Virus record (IMG/VR): IMGVR_UViG_3300025133_007837
Location: 69,840-133,839 of that record
Length of the DNA stretch: 64,000 nucleotides
Origin: a virus
Direction: 5' to 3' (one strand)
Positions within the stretch are counted from its first letter, which is position 1, and the number at the start of each line of letters is the position of its first letter. Under the pieces are notes generated by a model. That model was given only the letters and a program-made list of their open reading frames with translations. It was not told the DNA's origin and searched no databases. Of this stretch, positions 6,701 through 12,019 are shown piece after piece. Made by a program: the position numbers and the translations under genes.

Positions 6701-6775
6701 AGGCCGGTAGCTCAATGGTAGAGCAGTAGCCTTTTAAGCTATTGGTTGAGGGTTCGATCCCCTCCCGACCTACCA
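6701..6775 (+). tRNA. tRNA-Lys(TTT)
   Basis: D arm GCTC/GAGC, anticodon loop CT-TTT-AA, T-loop TTCGATC, encoded CCA; one acceptor-stem mismatch. Confidence 0.92.
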
Positions 6776-6996: not shown

Positions 6997-7025
6997 TTGA
7001 CAAGTAGTTCAGCTTGTGCTATTAT
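6997..7025 (+). promoter_or_regulatory. sigma70-type promoter, leaderless
   Basis: TTGACA-N17-TATTAT with TG extension; ATG at 7032. Confidence 0.75.
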
Positions 7026-7031
7026 ATATAT

Positions 7032-7298
7032 ATGTCAACGATGACCAGAAAGAAAGGATCGGGCCGAACTAAAGGCGCGACAAGCCTCATCGAAGTCAAC
7101 CTACGAGAGCTTAACCGTGTCTTGCGCGAGGACGCTATCGTTATGGTTGGAAGGAAGTACGCCGAGCAACTCGGACTTCAGACAGGCAATCGTATCATAT
7201 CTAATTATGCGAATGTGTCTGCCGCCGCGCCAGTTGAGGTCAAAGAGACTGCCCTTGAGGAAGAATCTCAGGTCGCAGTAAAAAGCATTGACTTTTAA
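7032..7298 (+). CDS. hypothetical protein with basic GSGRTKG motif (possible DNA binding)
   Basis: ORF after a promoter; start revised to ATG 7032. Confidence 0.7.
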   Translation: MSTMTRKKGSGRTKGATSLIEVNLRELNRVLREDAIVMVGRKYAEQLGLQTGNRIISNYANVSAAAPVEVKETALEEESQVAVKSIDF

Positions 7299-7322
7299 TC
7301 AAGTAACTGTTAAGATAGACTA

Positions 7323-8252
7323 ATGGATACGACTACATTCCCCGACATAATCGGGCAAGAAAGCGCGAAGCGTGTACTGGATTTCCATATTGGAGGATTC
7401 AAAGCTACTTCAGTAATGCCTCACCTCATGTTTGTCGCGCCCAAGGGTTGCGGCAAAACGACGATGGCAAAGGCAGTTGCTCGTACACTCAAGGGTATTG
7501 ACGATGCCAAACGGTACTTTGAGATTAACTGTTCTACGATTAAGAATGTAAAGCAGTTCTTTAATCAGTTGGTTATTCCATTGATGCAGGACAGGGACGC
7601 TACCATCCTCTTTGATGAGGCAAGTGAGATTCCCAAGGATGTTTCGATGGCCATGCTGACCATCCTTAATCCAAACTCCGAGAATCGTACTTCGTTCTCC
7701 TTTGAGGACTATACGGTAGATTTTGATTTCAGTCGGCTATCGTTCATGTTCGCCACAACTGAAACTCAATCCGTATTTCATGCCTTGATGGACAGATTAG
7801 AGCGTGTTGATCTTGAGGAATACTCTATTGAGGAGATGGGACAGATAGTTGCCTTGAATCTCGACATAGACATTGATCCAAAAACATTACAGGATATCGC
7901 CTCTGTCTTGCGCGGCAATGCGAGAGCAGCACAAAAAATGGCTCATAAAATTGAGTCTTATTGCAGTCAGAAAAAAGTTAAAAGATTTGATTCAACTCAT
8001 TGGAAAGAATTGAGCAGAATCTTAAACATATTTGCACTTGGCTTAAATGTTACTGAAATCCAGTTGCTAAACATATTGAAAGATCACAAAGATTGTAGTC
8101 TTACTAATTTGTCTGCAAAAACTGGTATCAGCAAAGCAGCAATTCAAAGAGATTTTGAAATCTACTTGCAGAAGCATTCTTTAATGGAGATAACAACTGC
8201 TGGAAGAAACATAACAGCAAAAGGTTTGGATTATTTAAAACTAATTGCTTGA
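7323..8252 (+). CDS. RuvB-like AAA+ ATPase (Holliday junction branch-migration motor-like)
   Basis: F.DIIGQE start, Walker A PKGCGKT, Walker B FDE, ATT sensor, RGNAR, C-terminal winged helix ending GRNITAKG. Confidence 0.8.
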   Translation: MDTTTFPDIIGQESAKRVLDFHIGGFKATSVMPHLMFVAPKGCGKTTMAKAVARTLKGIDDAKRYFEINCSTIKNVKQFFNQLVIPLMQDRDATILFDEASEIPKDVSMAMLTILNPNSENRTSFSFEDYTVDFDFSRLSFMFATTETQSVFHALMDRLERVDLEEYSIEEMGQIVALNLDIDIDPKTLQDIASVLRGNARAAQKMAHKIESYCSQKKVKRFDSTHWKELSRILNIFALGLNVTEIQLLNILKDHKDCSLTNLSAKTGISKAAIQRDFEIYLQKHSLMEITTAGRNITAKGLDYLKLIA

Positions 8253-8277
8253 CTTTGAGTTCAGGTACTGGTATAAT
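8249..8277 (+). promoter_or_regulatory. sigma70-type promoter
   Basis: TTGACT-N17-TATAAT with TG extension. Confidence 0.8.
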
Positions 8278-8326
8278 TAAGAAGTAGTCAGGGAAAGGCC
8301 CAGACAAAAAAACAGACGAATAAATT

Positions 8327-8524
8327 ATGGGTATGCGCAATCATACATATAGGTTGGAGGTTCAACGCCAGACTGGCGGAGGCCTGAAAGTCGTGACCGC
8401 TGAACAGTTGGTCAAAATCAATCAACACTCTCATGCATATGAGACAGTTGATAAGGCGGCGTTTGCCGCTACCATGAACGGCCCCAAGGCCGCTCGACGC
8501 ACGGTTCCGCGAAAACGGAGCTAG
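8327..8524 (+). CDS. hypothetical protein
   Basis: ORF between a promoter and a structured RNA/terminator. Confidence 0.65.
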   Translation: MGMRNHTYRLEVQRQTGGGLKVVTAEQLVKINQHSHAYETVDKAAFAATMNGPKAARRTVPRKRS

Positions 8525-8530
8525 GCGTTA

Positions 8531-8607
8531 GGAGACTTCGGCATGGTGCTGCGCGAGATGCGCGGACGGGGTTTGTAGGTTACCCTAGTGAAACACCGGA
8601 GTTCTCC
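8531..8607 (+). ncRNA. candidate structured RNA motif, copy A (P1-CAUGGUG-P2[GAGAU]-AC-P3-NN-UGAAACA-P1')
   Basis: Same junction sequences as 10355-10439(-), with different but compensating stems. Confidence 0.7.
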
Positions 8608-8646
8608 CCCATTTCCCCCCCTGAGTAGTAGTTGATAGTTCATTCG

Positions 8647-8675
8647 TACCCCCGCTTCGGCGGGGGTATTTTTTT
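8647..8675 (+). terminator. Rho-independent terminator
   Basis: TACCCCCGC-TTCG-GCGGGGGTA followed by a T-tract. Confidence 0.9.
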
Positions 8676-8749
8676 GTCCACTTTCCCCATTTTTTCCAAA
8701 TAAGGCAAATAAAGGGCTATCTTATTATACTATAATCTTTTAGGATCCT

Positions 8750-8824
8750 TAAGTCACTGACAGTCAACGAGTTACGGCGCGCGCCTCCCCCCCGCGCGTA
8801 ACCTCTTGAGTACCAAAGACTTAC
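8750..8824. repeat. 74-bp bipartite palindromic element, copy 1 (inverted relative to copies 2-8)
   Basis: TAAGTCACTGACAGTCAACGAGTTAC, then a C-tract spacer, then GTAACCTCTTGAGTACCAAAGACTTAC. Confidence 0.9.
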
Positions 8825-8929
8825 GCCTCCCGTAAAACGAGAGGCGTGTCAAGCTTTTATTTAAAGGGAGGCAGGGGAGTAGTAACCGTGATAGTGCCCA
8901 TCAAAGTCTCCCCCACCTCCCACGTGCCG

Positions 8930-9817
8930 CTAAGAGGTCACTAAGACATCGTCAGATTTGGTGACGGGCTTGCGAGTGAGCTTCGCAAAGAACGCCTTGT
9001 CCTTCGCTGCCTTCGTCAGCTTCTTGAGGATGGTCTCATTGACCTTGCTTGCGTATTCGTACCGGTCGTTTTGCACGGCAGTACGATTCTTACCACTTGT
9101 CAGGTGCTGGGTTGCAGCATTATACAAGTTGTAGAGGTTCCGAGCCTCGTCCTCTTTGTAAGTGGGATTTATCCATATCTTGGAAATCTCCTCACGCAGA
9201 GAGTTGCTCAGTACCTTAGAATCACGTAGATTCTTGAGGATGAAATCCCCGATGGTGTTGTCGATCTTGGTCTCAGCTAAGAGACCGTAGTCTTCACCGA
9301 TTGTATCGAATGCTGTTAGAGCAGAGTCGATAGCCCTAGACACTCCGCTCAGGTCGAGCTTGCTGGAGTGTTTCTGGTTGAAGGTGTACGTCGAGCGTAA
9401 AGCCTTCATGCCGTTGGTGCATACCTCGCGCAACGCTGCCAAGTCCAAGCCTGCGAAACAGGATCGGTCGTAGGAGTTGCGCCCTGTAATACGCATACCG
9501 ACGGTATCGCCTACACCGGGAACAGCGATGTTCTTTCCGGGCAGGTCGTACGTTGCGTACATGGTAGCACCATCACGCGCCACCCTGACTTCCTTGTTAT
9601 AGTCTAAACCTTTGTCGGTTAAGACTGACTCGATAGAGTCAACCAAGGTTGAGTTTAGCAACAAGCCATACTTGTCACTCGTTACACCTAGCACTTGGCC
9701 GGTGTCTGTCCTGCGCGTTCCCCAAAAGCCAGCATCGCTGCCGTCTTGGGTTTGCAGTTGCTCCATAACTACAGGGAAGTCGTAGTTGCCGCTTGTTGGT
9801 CTTGTTGTTCTTGCCAT
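8930..9817 (-). CDS. DUF932/DUF945-like phage protein
   Basis: RTDTGQVLGV...Y, NSYD, R.VCTNGM and NLYNLYNAAT motifs. Confidence 0.75.
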   Translation of the reverse strand: MARTTRPTSGNYDFPVVMEQLQTQDGSDAGFWGTRRTDTGQVLGVTSDKYGLLLNSTLVDSIESVLTDKGLDYNKEVRVARDGATMYATYDLPGKNIAVPGVGDTVGMRITGRNSYDRSCFAGLDLAALREVCTNGMKALRSTYTFNQKHSSKLDLSGVSRAIDSALTAFDTIGEDYGLLAETKIDNTIGDFILKNLRDSKVLSNSLREEISKIWINPTYKEDEARNLYNLYNAATQHLTSGKNRTAVQNDRYEYASKVNETILKKLTKAAKDKAFFAKLTRKPVTKSDDVLVTS

Positions 9818-9855
9818 AACGTCTTTTTATATATTAACAGTTACTGTATTGAAAG

Positions 9856-10068
9856 TCAAGATAATAATTCTTTTATTCGGTTAGCATTTAAAATTCCATC
9901 AAGCTCATGCTCAATTTCTTTAGCCAGCTTAACTTCTGATGGTTCATACAATTCGTGCCACTTGATAATGGCCATGCATTTACCTTTTAGGCCAGCCACC
10001 TTGCAGCGTAAGGATAGGATTTTGTCTTGCGCTTCGTGTAGTTTCTTTAGGTTTTCTAACTCGCTCAT
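9856..10068 (-). CDS. hypothetical coiled-coil protein
   Basis: ORF with its own TTGACT-N17-TATAAT promoter at ~10075-10103. Confidence 0.7.
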   Translation of the reverse strand: MSELENLKKLHEAQDKILSLRCKVAGLKGKCMAIIKWHELYEPSEVKLAKEIEHELDGILNANRIKELLS

Positions 10069-10119
10069 GTCTTAATTATAACAGTAACTTTATTGAAAGT
10101 CAAGCTTTTAAATTTAAAT

Positions 10120-10180
10120 AGTTGGTGTCGATTAACGTCTGCAGCGGCTAACCGAAGGTGAGCTATTCCCGCACCAACTT
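10120..10180 (-). ncRNA. candidate small structured RNA with a dedicated promoter
   Basis: Closing stem AGTTGGTG/CACCAACT; promoter TTGACT(10214)-N17-TATACT(10191-10186) directly upstream; no ORF. Confidence 0.55.
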
Positions 10181-10232
10181 TAATAAGTATAGCACATTCT
10201 GACGCTCAAGTCAAGCCTTAATAGTGATGTCT

Positions 10233-10307
10233 TAAGTCGTTGAGCATCAAGGACTTACGCGCGGGGGGGAGGCCGCGGCCGTAACTCTCTGATTACCAAG
10301 GACTTAC
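10233..10307. repeat. 74-bp bipartite element, copy 2
   Basis: TAAGTCGTTGAGCATCAAGGACTTAC-GCGCGGGGGGGAGGCCGCGGCC-GTAACTCTCTGATTACCAAGGACTTAC. Confidence 0.95.
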
Positions 10308-10312
10308 AAGAC

Positions 10313-10351
10313 AAAAAAAGGGCGAGGGGGGCGAAACAAAACCCCCCTCGC
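10313..10351 (-). terminator. Rho-independent terminator
   Basis: GCGAGGGGGG/CCCCCCTCGC stem followed by a T-tract on the - strand. Confidence 0.75.
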
Positions 10352-10354
10352 ATT

Positions 10355-10439
10355 CCGGGCACGTGTGGCTGTTTCATGAGGCACCTGAACCGTCCACCTG
10401 TATCAGGATCTCCCTGATCACCATGGCCACTGAGCCCGG
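10355..10439 (-). ncRNA. candidate structured RNA motif, copy B
   Basis: GTGGC-CATGGTG-ATCAGG-GAGAT-CCTGAT-AC-AGGTG..TGCCT-CA-TGAAACA-GCCAC on the - strand. Confidence 0.7.
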
Positions 10440-10456
10440 ATGGGTTCAGAAAAGCG

Positions 10457-10891
10457 TCACGCCTTTACGGCGTCCCAGTCGCTTAAGTCTTCAGCCGAAA
10501 TCGAAAGCTCTTCGTGAATGTTGAGTTCCGGCGTACGCATTTTGTGCGTGTACAGTTCTTGCGTGTACGGAATGGAGTCGATGAATTCCTTTGCCCAATC
10601 GACCGCCAAGAAGTCTGCTCCGCCCTTCTTGCCCTTAAAGACTTCGCCGCCGAGGTCTTGGATGCAGCGCGTGCGGTAGATGTCGAGAACAGCTTTGCTG
10701 AAGCGTTTCTCGTCTGTCCAGAATACAGCCAGCTTGTCCGTGCGCCAGTCAAGCTCGCCGTTCGTAGCCATCCAGTTGTAGAAGGCGTAGTAACGTCTCG
10801 TCATCTCCTCTTGGTCGCTGCCCTCCATGCCGATGATCAGGCTGTCCTCGTCGATAACCTGCCGATAGTAGTTTATTTTTTCGCTAAACAT
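10457..10891 (-). CDS. hypothetical protein (GC-rich cassette gene)
   Basis: ORF with an upstream sigma70 promoter at ~10940-10969. Confidence 0.75.
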   Translation of the reverse strand: MFSEKINYYRQVIDEDSLIIGMEGSDQEEMTRRYYAFYNWMATNGELDWRTDKLAVFWTDEKRFSKAVLDIYRTRCIQDLGGEVFKGKKGGADFLAVDWAKEFIDSIPYTQELYTHKMRTPELNIHEELSISAEDLSDWDAVKA

Positions 10892-11077
10892 TTGTTTTTT
10901 AGTTTTTCAATTGCTGCTTTTCCCCAGCAGCGATAAGAGTATTATTGCATATTTTAGAGCTAAAGTCAAGTCTTTTTTTATCTTTTTATATAGTCGTTTA
11001 GCCAGAACACAACAAAAATTGATAGAACGAAAAGTATGATACCCATTTCTTTATAATATAGGAAACTTGACGGGCTG

Positions 11078-11713
11078 TCAATGTTTTTTGTAGTCAATGT
11101 TTTCGACTGTTTCATCCCAACAGGCTCGACAGTCTTTGCAGCTATTGTCTTGCTTTGGTGCTGGGCAGGTAAAACTTTCGTCAGTTTTCGCTCCGCTCGT
11201 GGTCAAGCCTAAACGACTTGCCAAGGCGGTTGGCGGTGCGCCGTCCATCATAATTGCAGACAATCGAATGATAAGATTGTCAGGCTTACGGCCTAGTTTC
11301 ATCCATTCGCTGACAAAGGAGTATTCCCTAGTCGGCAGCCAAAATTTAATGTGAGGCAACCGCCTTGCAACCTCTGCAATCTTTTCGAGATGCCAAACGC
11401 CCTGAACGTCACCAGCATCATGCCAACGAAAAAAGCCAGTCTTTTCCCTTTTCCCGATCATAAAAACCATCATGTCCACCCAATCAATTTGGTCTAATGA
11501 TTTAAGCCGTTTCTTTTGCGCGGCCTTTACGTTAGGAAAAACATAACGTCCTTTGCGAGCGTAGCAAAAAGAACAAATCGAATTGATAACCTCGACCAAC
11601 TTCGAACCCCTGATACAGTCCTCTGCTGGTGTGCTGTAACTAAAGCCGGGCATCTTCGACGGCACGGAAAGTGAACCAACGCGCCCCTCTGCAAGTTTGA
11701 TAGTAAGTCTCAT
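11078..11713 (-). CDS. GP88-like phage protein (Cys-rich, radical-SAM-like fragment)
   Basis: SKMPGFSYSTPA, C..CYA, FRWHDAGD, WLPTRE, CPA...C..CRACW. Confidence 0.75.
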   Translation of the reverse strand: MRLTIKLAEGRVGSLSVPSKMPGFSYSTPAEDCIRGSKLVEVINSICSFCYARKGRYVFPNVKAAQKKRLKSLDQIDWVDMMVFMIGKREKTGFFRWHDAGDVQGVWHLEKIAEVARRLPHIKFWLPTREYSFVSEWMKLGRKPDNLIIRLSAIMMDGAPPTALASRLGLTTSGAKTDESFTCPAPKQDNSCKDCRACWDETVENIDYKKH

Positions 11714-11748
11714 AACGCGAAAGAGTATAGCAGATTAAGCCTCACTTG

Positions 11749-11991
11749 TCAAGCCCATAATTTAGCCCAACCCTCAGGGCTGTATCCGCTGGCTACGAAC
11801 TCCCTATCATCCGCACTTAAAGACTTAAGCGCAACCTGTAGCAGCTCGCCCTGATTCAAGTCCCAAAGCTCATGCCCTAATATTGTCACACTATAGGGCT
11901 TGCCGGTTCCCCGACACGGGCCGGTGAATGTATAGGTTCCCTCTGTGTGGTTCTGCTCGTAAGTGCAGTTTGTATGTATATAACGTCCCAT
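11749..11991 (-). CDS. conserved phage hypothetical protein
   Basis: Q.AL..LSADDREF..SG.SPE.W pattern; own promoter. Confidence 0.7.
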   Translation of the reverse strand: MGRYIHTNCTYEQNHTEGTYTFTGPCRGTGKPYSVTILGHELWDLNQGELLQVALKSLSADDREFVASGYSPEGWAKLWA

Positions 11992-12019
11992 AACGCGAAA
12001 CAGTATACCAGATTAAAGG

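Follow-up and report, generated by a model that had tools for sequence, protein, structure and literature searches.

We found that two short elements in the 64,000-nucleotide stretch of viral DNA analyzed here (the window) are almost certainly members of an uncatalogued family of small RNAs that fold into a three-way junction when read on the given strand. The original prediction had proposed searching for relatives with a covariance model; pattern and covariance-model searches yielded 183 distinct copies in 173 loci, with strong covariation in the stems. The core of the family is 45-89 nt long, and its parts follow in the order P1, N-AUGGUG, P2, AC, P3, N-GAAACA and P1′. P1, the closing stem, is variable (median 8 uninterrupted pairs, maximum 17), as is P3, while P2 has 6 bp in every case and carries a GAGA-N loop. 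The N-AUGGUG, AC and N-GAAACA junction strands are nearly invariant, and about 18 nucleotides are invariant in all. A possible extra helix between CAUG(9-12) and CAUG(59-62) can be drawn in 61 of 99 distinct rows and is not conserved.

In the window, copy A lies on the plus strand at 8531-8607, with a P1 of 11 pairs and one bulge (8531-8541 with 8596-8607), the J12 strand CAUGGUG (8542-8548), P2 (8549-8554 with 8560-8565) closed by the loop GAGAU (8555-8559), the AC strand (8566-8567), P3 (8568-8572 with 8582-8586) and the J31 strand AG-UGAAACA (8587-8595). Copy B, on the minus strand at 10439-10355, has a 5-bp inner P1 (10430-10426 with 10369-10365) and, separate from it, a 6-bp outer stem (10439-10434 with 10360-10355), which enclose CAUGGUG (10425-10419), P2 (10418-10413 with 10407-10402) with its GAGAU loop (10412-10408), AC (10401-10400), P3 (10399-10395 with 10383-10379) and CA-UGAAACA (10378-10370). 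Both copies had been predicted at exactly these sites, which the sequence, the pattern matches and the covariance-model matches (8534-8603 and 10433-10362) bear out; the model alignments likewise agree with the prediction that CAUGGUG, GAGAU, AC and UGAAACA are identical in the two copies while all three stems differ in sequence yet pair. The predicted stems do pair, but their extents had been understated, with respect to both the longer P1 of copy A and the additional outer stem of copy B. In the window, copies A and B flank a cassette in inverted orientation.

The pattern CATGGTG-N(10-30)-AC-N(10-40)-TGAAACA has exactly two matches in the window, 8542-8595 (+) and 10370-10425 (-), and none in 100 dinucleotide shuffles of its 64 kb. 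A covariance model of 47 sequences scores copy A at 70.5 bits and copy B at 64.7 bits, values that are partly circular as both copies are in the training set; the next-best match in the window, with filters off, reaches 9.1 bits. Energy folding of the copies is not significant (z of -0.99 and -0.69): the minimum-energy fold reproduces the junction in copy A, P2 and P3 of copy B are not recovered, and the z of -2.66 for a 150-nt fold around copy B is owed to a terminator-like hairpin. Support for the fold therefore comes from comparison with relatives. In an alignment of 47 sequences, double-sided changes occur at 19 of 19 pairs, 92.9% of the cells pair against 54.2% after shuffling and 36-46% in slid controls, and the covariation score of 0.976, compared with 0.232 after shuffling, is reached by none of 500 shuffles. 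P3 and the three outer pairs of P1 covary too, though they were not used in picking the sequences. Among 118 unpicked viral pattern matches, 104 have a 6-nt P2 arm, which pairs at all six positions in 99 (chance 0.0028), and AC follows P2 in 96 of these 99, even though it is absent from the search pattern. The reading strand is indicated by G-U pairs, which are common on the given strand and would be A-C mismatches on the opposite one. The flanking genes lie on the same rather than the opposite strand at about 70:30 (98 vs 42 upstream, 90 vs 39 downstream), in keeping with co-transcription of motif and neighbors. We rejected a small open reading frame beginning at the AUG of CAUGGUG, which in copy A has AGGAG upstream: no reading frame is conserved, the AUG-to-UGA frames being spread 35/35/27 over 97 distinct cores and the predicted peptides varying in length between 3 aa and over 50 aa.

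The family had been put forward as unrecognized, and Rfam 15 (4227 models) upheld this, with no match to it at any threshold. Over the whole window at the gathering threshold only two tRNAs are reported; at E up to 10, the region 8400-10600 gives eight weak matches, all below gathering and terminator-driven, the best being anti-hemB on 8605-8675 (25.7 vs 49.5 bits), and the motif alone (8520-8620) gives none. The best-scoring relative matches only mir-1304 (13.3 vs 90 bits). The motif is matched neither by the ribozyme-class models, even at E up to 10, nor by the drum, GOLLD and ROOL models, and ARAGORN and RF00005 call the neighboring tRNAs and never the motif. A mimic or antisense of rRNA was rejected on the 16S and 23S rRNAs of two carrier bacteria, where the best model match is 8.8 bits, no antisense 7-mer occurs, and the few sense 7-mers are scattered rather than grouped. 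Full-text searches of open-access papers turned up no description of the motif; neither this nor its absence from Rfam 15 proves that it is undescribed. The 26 HRIMA motifs of Eckert et al. 2023 (PMC10085705) are reported to come, almost without exception, from metatranscriptomes only.

The carriers are viral contigs, prophage-like regions and mobile elements of bacteria, and one family of Thaumarchaeota, and the samples are of marine, soil and freshwater origin. By record title, the cultured bacteria among them include Terriglobus albidus DSM 26559 and Aeromicrobium sp. CTD01-1L150. Some copies in mobile or prophage settings lie beside genes for HNH endonucleases, invertases and RusA. Tandem copies occur at at least nine loci, and 4 of 15 genomes of the thaumarchaeal family have 4-17 copies each. 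The archaeal copies are placed 79-138 nt 3′ of genes, behind a hairpin and T-run, and 5 of 6 archaeal loci, from several genomes, display an A/T-rich TATA-like box 22-30 nt 5′ of the motif, an arrangement more suggestive of independent small RNA genes than of message tails. The repeated archaeal unit takes in the 3′ end of paralogous surface-protein genes, and the archaeal copy number is therefore partly a matter of hitch-hiking. The whole records of five viral contigs held no copies beyond those already known, and blastn against cultured phages with window positions 7000-12000 and with the region of a replication operon described below (L001) returned nothing. Of the 11 short blastn matches of a consensus-like copy, neither that in Microcystis phage Mae-JY24 (22.9 bits, lacking the junction bases) nor that in Synechococcus phage Sf-FR1 (12.2 bits) was counted as a member. 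A pattern with a free P2 loop was dropped as too noisy, with 3 true members among 115 new matches.

As predicted, both window copies come just after a stop codon. A 65-aa ORF (8327-8524, +) ends in a TAG 6 nt 5′ of copy A, and a 144-aa ORF (10457-10891, -) in a TGA 17 nt 5′ of the outer stem of copy B; neither has a match in Pfam or PHROG. Homologues of both proteins hold the same position elsewhere, one of 64 aa preceding a near-identical copy at locus L067 and one of 143 aa a copy-B-like motif at L078. Upstream of the 65-aa ORF, a promoter-like site (8249-8277, +; TTGACT, 17 nt, TATAAT, with TG before the second hexamer) agrees with the consensus at 11 of 12 positions; on this consensus match, it would give a short unit of ORF, motif and terminator. 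Intrinsic-terminator-like hairpins with U-runs are found 39 nt 3′ of copy A (8646-8676, +; hairpin 8646-8669) and directly 3′ of copy B (10313-10351, -; hairpin 10351-10322). The predicted placement before a terminator thus holds for both window copies, but across the family it applies to a minority: of 104 copies, 16 have a terminator-like site within 130 nt downstream, compared with 28 of 540 control windows. Only 6 of the 104 have a U-run immediately behind P1, which led us to reject the motif as an intrinsic terminator in itself.

Family-wide, a same-strand ORF of at least 60 aa stops within 40 nt 5′ of the motif in 80 of 177 copies. No shared neighboring protein was found: the upstream proteins are diverse (e.g., terminase, protease, endolysin, SSB, endonuclease and tail proteins), 44 of them fall at most three to a Pfam family and two to a PHROG family, and all-against-all BLAST gives only small clusters from related phages. 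A tRNA lies within 60 nt downstream of 11 of the 183 copies, ten of these tRNAs being on the same strand and ten at 14-19 nt after GAAACA, and no copy has one within 60 nt upstream; 300 trials of random placement gave a mean of 2.4 such adjacencies and a maximum of 6. The gap between motif and tRNA 5′ end is 6-11 nt, and in the arrays L085 and L243, and likewise in L021, motif copies are 5-12 nt from their neighbors. For the window copies, the nearest tRNA is 1.8 kb off, ending at 6772. Many copies have a convergent gene or a tRNA next downstream.

We tentatively favor the view that the motif is an autonomous, self-folding transcript-boundary or 3′-end module; among the roles listed in the original prediction, processing or a transcript-end function fits the context data best. 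Transcription would place the motif behind an upstream message, as its tail, or ahead of a tRNA, and the motif, staying intact, would come to lie at the 3′ end of the upstream RNA or close to it. Termination may create this end, as may cleavage within the spacer downstream of the motif or RNase P processing of the tRNA that comes next. In this position the motif might set and protect the end and keep the folding of neighboring sequences insulated. The invariant junction and fixed-length P2 point to a specific tertiary fold, which would be recognized by something present in both bacteria and archaea. The covarying fold, the same-strand bias of the flanking genes, the proximity to ORF stops, the placement before tRNAs, the excess of terminators, the RNA contigs and the lack of a linked protein speak for this proposal. 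Among the RNA contigs, two from metatranscriptome runs of different studies (8411-8601 and 8363-8603) connect the 65-aa ORF with copy A, which is intact in both, and end at the 3′ side of its P1, without loose ends and before the terminator at 8646; assembled at a depth of 2-2.6, such contigs cannot show true ends, so that their support for a 3′ end at copy A is thin. In the four metatranscriptome runs, copy B and the spacer and terminator of copy A are uncovered, which shows nothing either way.

Several observations run against such a module. A plain stability or boundary element would require neither a P2 of constant length nor some 18 invariant nucleotides, and the proposal leaves the best-conserved part of the motif unexplained. 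The archaeal copies look like stand-alone genes, and a recognizable terminator or U-run stands behind only about a fifth of the copies. In addition, one arrangement looks more like a cis regulator: in a common phage group of at least 15 contigs (L001), the motif is inside a replication operon, with a phrog_2300 gene 76-82 nt upstream and the start of a helicase gene 11 nt downstream. Intergenic processing or stabilizing signals of phage messages, among them the RNase III sites in T7 early mRNA and the REP and terminator hairpins, offer a parallel to a boundary module. Like the motif, these signals occur in several copies per genome at gene boundaries, and, as is proposed for the motif, they remain on the message upstream as its 3′ end. 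However, they are simple or irregular hairpins, recognized by shape and confined to one lineage, whereas the junction of the motif is invariant across phyla and in both domains.

It is also possible, though less probable, that the motif acts in trans, as a stable small RNA whose junction binds a universal partner stoichiometrically, thus serving as a sponge, decoy or cofactor; it would be cut from tRNA-array or message transcripts or, in archaea, be made from its own promoter. The motif is the size of a tRNA and sits in the arrays L085, L243 and L021 like one more tRNA, the tandem doublets at at least nine loci would raise its dose, and the multiple copies and TATA-like boxes of the thaumarchaeal family are what such an RNA might be expected to have. 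The highly conserved junction with a fixed P2 is typical of a binding pocket, and its occurrence in both domains implies that the partner should be universal: candidates could be a small molecule, a conserved protein or the tRNA 3′ end, whose ACCA might pair with the UGGU of AUGGUG. Yet the window contigs have the motif attached to the upstream ORF and not released, the archaeal copy number owes something to the surface-protein gene ends, the partner is hypothetical and the ACCA pairing putative, and natural aptamers or sponge RNAs that stand alone in this way are not known to us. An antitoxin-like role, also suggested originally, found nothing in its favor, there being neither repeat arrays of the ToxI kind nor a linked toxin gene. 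Structured, stable RNAs are familiar from phage tRNA clusters, including the T4 species 1 and 2 RNAs (rnaC and rnaD), the drum motif, and GOLLD and ROOL beside tRNAs. These resemble the motif in being RNAs of unknown function placed by phages among or next to tRNA genes and probably shaped by tRNA-processing enzymes. In contrast to them, the motif is next to tRNAs in only 11 of 183 copies, mostly follows protein genes and is also found on archaeal chromosomes; it is, moreover, much smaller than rnaC/rnaD, GOLLD and ROOL.

That the junction is the active site or ligand pocket of a new class of natural functional RNA appears unlikely. Such a class would comprise either small ribozymes, self-cleaving or with another chemistry, or aptamer or sponge RNAs that stand alone; phages would have spread it, and bacteria, archaea and their viruses would have it in common. 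A more specific form of this idea, a new class of small self-cleaving ribozymes that process the transcripts of phages and cells where genes or tRNAs adjoin, we regard as distinctly unlikely. The scattered distribution among phages, mobile elements, bacteria and archaea, with expansions in single genomes, does resemble that of the hammerhead and twister ribozymes. The core is similar in size to the hammerhead, twister-sister, pistol and hatchet ribozymes, and shares with hammerhead-type ribozymes a three-way junction with conserved bases, freely covarying stems and one stem of fixed length, along with the patchy hosts, intergenic location and co-transcription with neighbors that are also seen in phage-borne ribozymes. 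The junction strands nevertheless differ, with 7, 2 and about 9 nt (AUGGUG/AC/GAAACA) against 7, 4 and 1 in the hammerhead. In the hammerhead, the GAAA box is followed by stem III and then by H (not G); the motif has GAAACA but, by our reading, an invariant G in the H17 place after U11-A65, the only Watson-Crick candidate pair. The motif also lacks the conserved CUGAnGA box between stems I and II by which PMC10085705 defines the hammerhead, its P2-P3 strand being AC and its 7-nt strand N-AUGGUG.

The usual criteria for ribozyme searches quoted in Eckert et al. 2023 (PMC10085705), namely a length of 50-80 nt, several stems meeting in a junction, strong nucleotide conservation and significant covariation, describe the motif well; however, 10 of 10 similar candidates in that paper did not cleave, which sets a low prior. 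Three RNA contigs span J12 and two of them the whole motif, uncut, which is weak evidence against cleavage, and P1 is long and GC-rich, so that cleavage products would not separate. Unlike hammerhead-type ribozymes, the motif has no circularly permuted form among the loci recovered: a P3-open pattern returned 49 loci, 14 with a paired P2 arm, and in none is P1 closed as a hairpin, five being tandem copies and the rest chance occurrences of GAAACA upstream. Across 137 kb around 20 copies, Rfam at the gathering threshold reports 61 matches, all tRNAs, and no known ribozyme. The theta (minimal HDV-like) ribozymes (PMC10879173) provide a precedent: they, too, are small conserved RNAs of phages, located within a few nucleotides of tRNA genes, with a presumed role in shaping transcript ends. 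Their cleavage site is at the tRNA 3′ end, whereas the motif is found before tRNAs and never directly after them (11 vs 0); they form a nested double pseudoknot rather than a plain three-way junction and derive from gut phages rather than from marine, soil and freshwater samples (PMC10879173).

A cis-regulatory element, either a riboswitch-like aptamer or a translational operator in which formation of P1 would control the next gene or terminator, seems quite improbable. It draws on the L001 group, where the AAGG ribosome-binding site of the helicase gene, 7-9 nt before its start, is inside P1′, on the terminators that follow 16 of 104 copies and the six U-runs directly after P1, on a conserved junction typical of a ligand pocket, and on the tandem copies, tandem aptamers being known for riboswitches. 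Against it, the motif has no link to any gene family or pathway, many copies face a convergent gene or a tRNA, the usually long P1 is poorly suited to switching, and no alternative pairing of P1′ with a terminator was seen by eye in the window or in the L012/L025 group. The purine riboswitch, a P1-closed three-way-junction aptamer, is comparable in its junction rich in invariant bases, and in aptamers of this type, too, some copies are tandem and some have following terminators. The motif differs in its lack of a gene-family association, a J2/3 of only AC, a long P1, its occurrence at 3′ ends and in tRNA arrays, and the absence of an Rfam match. Finally, a DNA-level element (a recombination or transposition site, or repeated mobile DNA), which the mobile and prophage contexts, the multiple copies in some archaeal genomes and the inverted window copies might suggest, is highly improbable, as the stems covary freely with only the unpaired bases fixed, G-U pairs are common on just one of the two strands, orientation follows the flanking genes, terminal repeats and target duplications are absent, and copies within one phage differ in every stem.

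The combination of a conserved junction, clean covariation and a presence in both prokaryotic domains and their viruses is rare among new RNA classes, and past classes of comparable profile turned out to be ribozymes or riboswitches. With a size of about 55-90 nt, the motif is quick to test biochemically, and its presence in cultured bacteria makes genetics possible. If it is a boundary or 3′-end module, its placement just 5′ of tRNAs would show how phages separate message and tRNA on one transcript, and it would constitute a compact insulator for synthetic biology.

The tailed phage from which the window derives carries two copies of a three-way-junction RNA motif comprising a stem P1, the junction strand N-AUGGUG, a stem P2 with a GAGA-N loop, the dinucleotide AC, a stem P3 and a second long junction strand, N-GAAACA. 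Inspection of the sequence of 8300-10700 showed both copies as originally described, and the pattern CATGGTG...AC...TGAAACA has exactly two matches in the 64-kb window (8542-8595 on the plus strand and 10370-10425 on the minus strand), with none in 100 shuffles. The placement proposed for them, after a stop codon and before a terminator, was likewise recovered: a 65-aa ORF ends 6 nt before copy A (8531-8607, plus) and a 144-aa ORF ends 17 nt before copy B (10439-10355, minus), and terminator-like hairpins with U-runs lie behind them at 8646-8669 (plus) and 10351-10322 (minus), respectively. The fold drawn for copy A stands except for P1, which is longer than proposed, with 11 pairs and one bulge (8531-8541/8596-8607), while copy B has an inner P1 of 5 bp and a separate outer stem of 6 bp. 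Energy folding of copies A and B was not significant (z of -0.99 and -0.69) and missed P2 and P3 of copy B; hence, the case for the motif rests on its relatives.

The window further encodes two tRNAs, an AAA+ ATPase with clamp-loader and RuvB-like matches, DUF932 and GP88-family proteins, a large terminase subunit and a collagen-like tail-fibre protein. The last of these (56788-61311) is a 1507-aa Gly-X-Y protein with many repeated stretches. The sequence is found in marine metagenome runs, and a blastn search with 7000-12000 recovered no cultured-phage relatives. Two 74-nt arms (8750-8823 and 10233-10306), which are 74% complementary, surround a cassette that carries the DUF932 gene together with one encoding 70 aa; each arm displays two TAAGTC...GACTTAC-like boxes enclosing a GC-rich GTTACG...CGTAAC palindrome, and elements resembling them are found directly 3′ of the motif in three other motif-bearing loci (L039, L101 and L078). 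Within the cassette, a 33-nt direct repeat (9835-9867 and 10079-10111; 85% identical) bears promoter-like TTGACT-17-TA(A/T)TAT sites on the minus strand, preceding the DUF932 and 70-aa genes, and is probably a repeated early promoter.

The motif was originally described as unrecognised, and the Rfam check bears this out: at the gathering threshold, Rfam 15 yields only the two tRNAs in the window. With E-values of up to 10, the region 8400-10600 gives eight weak matches that are far under the cut-offs and terminator-driven; 101 nt around copy A give no match, and the best-scoring relative gives a single 13-bit microRNA match and nothing else. A full-text literature search found no description of the motif. 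Hammerhead ribozymes carry a CUGAnGA box, according to PMC10085705, and we reject this identity because the motif is devoid of such a box. A tRNA identity is also rejected, the even spread over the three reading frames excludes a small ORF, and mimicry of, or antisense pairing with, ribosomal RNA is excluded.

A search with the seed pattern CATGGTG-N(4-10)-GAGAT-N(20-50)-TGAAACA recovered at least 118 viral contigs. Among the matches listed, taken without picking, 104/118 feature a 6-nt arm before GAGAT; in 99 of these 104 all six bases pair with the next six (chance 0.0028), and in 96 of the 99 the paired P2 is followed by AC, which is absent from the pattern. Applied to prokaryote genomes (596 billion bases), the same pattern gives 121 matches, only 14 of which are genuine, indicating that the pattern alone gives chance matches and that the viral set is strongly enriched. 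The predicted covariation was borne out in a MAFFT alignment of 47 copies, in which all 19 pairs changed on both sides: 92.9% of the cells are paired versus 54.2% upon shuffling, the covariation score is 0.976 versus 0.232 (reached in 0/500 shuffles), and slid controls are 36-46% paired. These copies were chosen on inner P1 and P2; covariation extends to P3 and to the three outer pairs of P1, neither of which guided the choice. The covariance-model search originally proposed, run with a model from these 47 copies, gave 86 matches in the first 100 loci and 38 additional matches in 33 more, including second copies outside the pattern. We conclude, about as firmly as sequence comparison allows, that the motif is a genuine RNA fold under selection and is read from the given strand.

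To define the family we used three relaxed scans, with one conserved block freed in each, and reached a final set of 183 distinct copies in 173 loci; since each seed pattern held at least two blocks fixed, the family statistics are partly biased. The first base of both long junction strands proved free in these scans (C/U/A/G-AUGGUG and U/A/C/G-GAAACA), and AUGGAG replaces AUGGUG, and GAAAUA replaces GAAACA, in two copies each. GAGA-N is the sole loop seen among their P2-paired matches (GAGAU in 173, GAGAC in 4, GAGAG in 4 and GAGAA in 2 of the 183 copies). P2 is 6 bp in all true matches of the first scan, which permitted arms of 4-10 nt; patterns after it had the arm set to 6 nt. Across the 183 copies the core spans 45-89 nt (median 55) and the uninterrupted pairs of P1 number up to 17 (median 8); P3 loops or extra arms are 3-34 nt long. 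The G-C pairs of P1 that border the junction are conserved, and the GAGA-N loop may dock on them. Near the genome end of the Microcystis phage Mae-JY24 (L239 2987-3056; PP438416.1 43277-43346), a P2-GAGAG-P2′-AC core resembles the motif, with junction strands unlike those of the motif and a score of 22.9 bits; this may be a remote variant or a coincidence.

Viral contigs contribute 155 of the 183 copies and cellular genomes 26. Bacterial carriers (Acidobacteriota, Actinomycetota, Verrucomicrobiota, Gemmatimonadota, Bacteroidota and others) have one or two copies per genome, and in the two isolates examined the neighbours are HNH endonuclease, invertase, SRAP and RusA genes; only 2/151 sampled Acidobacteriota genomes bear the motif. 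One Thaumarchaeota genome has 18 matches, and in its family 4/15 genomes are positive, with 17, 16, 8 and 4 matches; a sample of the class, searched with stricter filters, yielded just 1/151. At least 11/14 aligned copies of the archaeal genome G006, and one copy of the genome G173, are located downstream of paralogous genes for surface proteins, at distances of 79-138 nt. These proteins combine a PQQ beta-propeller domain with a conserved membrane helix at the C terminus, after which comes RRKK. Gene and motif are separated by a hairpin and T-run, and an A/T-rich, TATA-like box is found 22-30 nt upstream of the motif in 5/6 archaeal loci from several genomes. In G006 (L164, L217, L219 and L252-L270) the surface proteins form a large paralogous family (~715-874 aa), and behind each gene comes a conserved ~100-nt spacer with a hairpin, T-run, second hairpin and TATA-like box, and then the motif. 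Also visible in the alignment, ~110-130 nt behind the motif in L253 and L258, is a putative tRNA-gene 3′ half, which lies on the other strand and converges on the motif; in L253 its CCA is encoded.

In phages, the motif shows no link to any protein family: among the 44 upstream proteins are terminase, protease, endolysin, SSB, endonuclease VII, RusA and tail proteins, and clusters form only between proteins of related phages. According to a crude ORF call, the upstream neighbour is on the same strand as the motif in 98 cases and on the opposite strand in 42, and the downstream neighbour in 90 and 39, respectively; a same-strand ORF stops within 40 nt of 80/177 copies. A tRNA lies within 60 nt downstream of 11/183 copies and within 60 nt upstream of none of the 183; random placement (300 trials) averages 2.4 and never exceeds 6. 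Of these 11 tRNAs, ten share the strand of the motif and ten start 14-19 nt past GAAACA, i.e., 6-11 nt past an 8-bp P1. The motif fills a tRNA-like slot in two large tRNA arrays, and tandem doublets occur in at least nine loci. A very large array, on the 166-kb viral contig L021 (597-9365; 38 Rfam tRNA matches on one strand), has a weak copy (42.5 bits) near its upstream end, with CC replacing AC after P2. Among the matches listed, a terminator-like site follows within 130 nt in 16/104 copies versus 28/540 control windows, and a U-run directly follows P1 in 6/104.

We compared four RNA runs, as assembled contigs, with 8200-10700. Contigs from two studies span 8411-8601 and 8363-8603, a third spans 8412-8562 and two more begin at 8321 and 8326; this cover shows that copy A, intact, shares an RNA with the 65-aa ORF. 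Two of the contigs, independent of each other, end cleanly on the 3′ side of P1, 43-45 nt short of the terminator. These data are a weak hint, as the depth is 2-2.6 and contigs cannot show true ends. Neither copy B nor the spacer is covered in these runs.

The genomic context points to transcript boundaries: the motif tails the upstream message, immediately ahead of RNase P sites or terminators, and apparently remains at the 3′ end of the RNA. We therefore rank first, tentatively, an autonomous boundary or 3′-end module. That it is instead a released, stoichiometric binder RNA is possible, if slightly less probable. A self-cleaving ribozyme is unlikely, given that the RNA contigs show the motif uncut, P1 is long, no permuted forms were found and similar candidates seldom succeed (0/10 in PMC10085705). 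One common phage group has the motif inside a replication operon, where P1′ contains the ribosome-binding site of a helicase gene. Action as a cis regulator appears improbable for the motif. A DNA element is barely credible. The probability left over belongs to functions beyond these. The favored boundary or 3′-end module leaves unexplained the ~18 fixed bases and the fixed P2 length in both prokaryotic domains; the motif must depend on a ligand, on catalysis or on some recognition that is both specific and universal.
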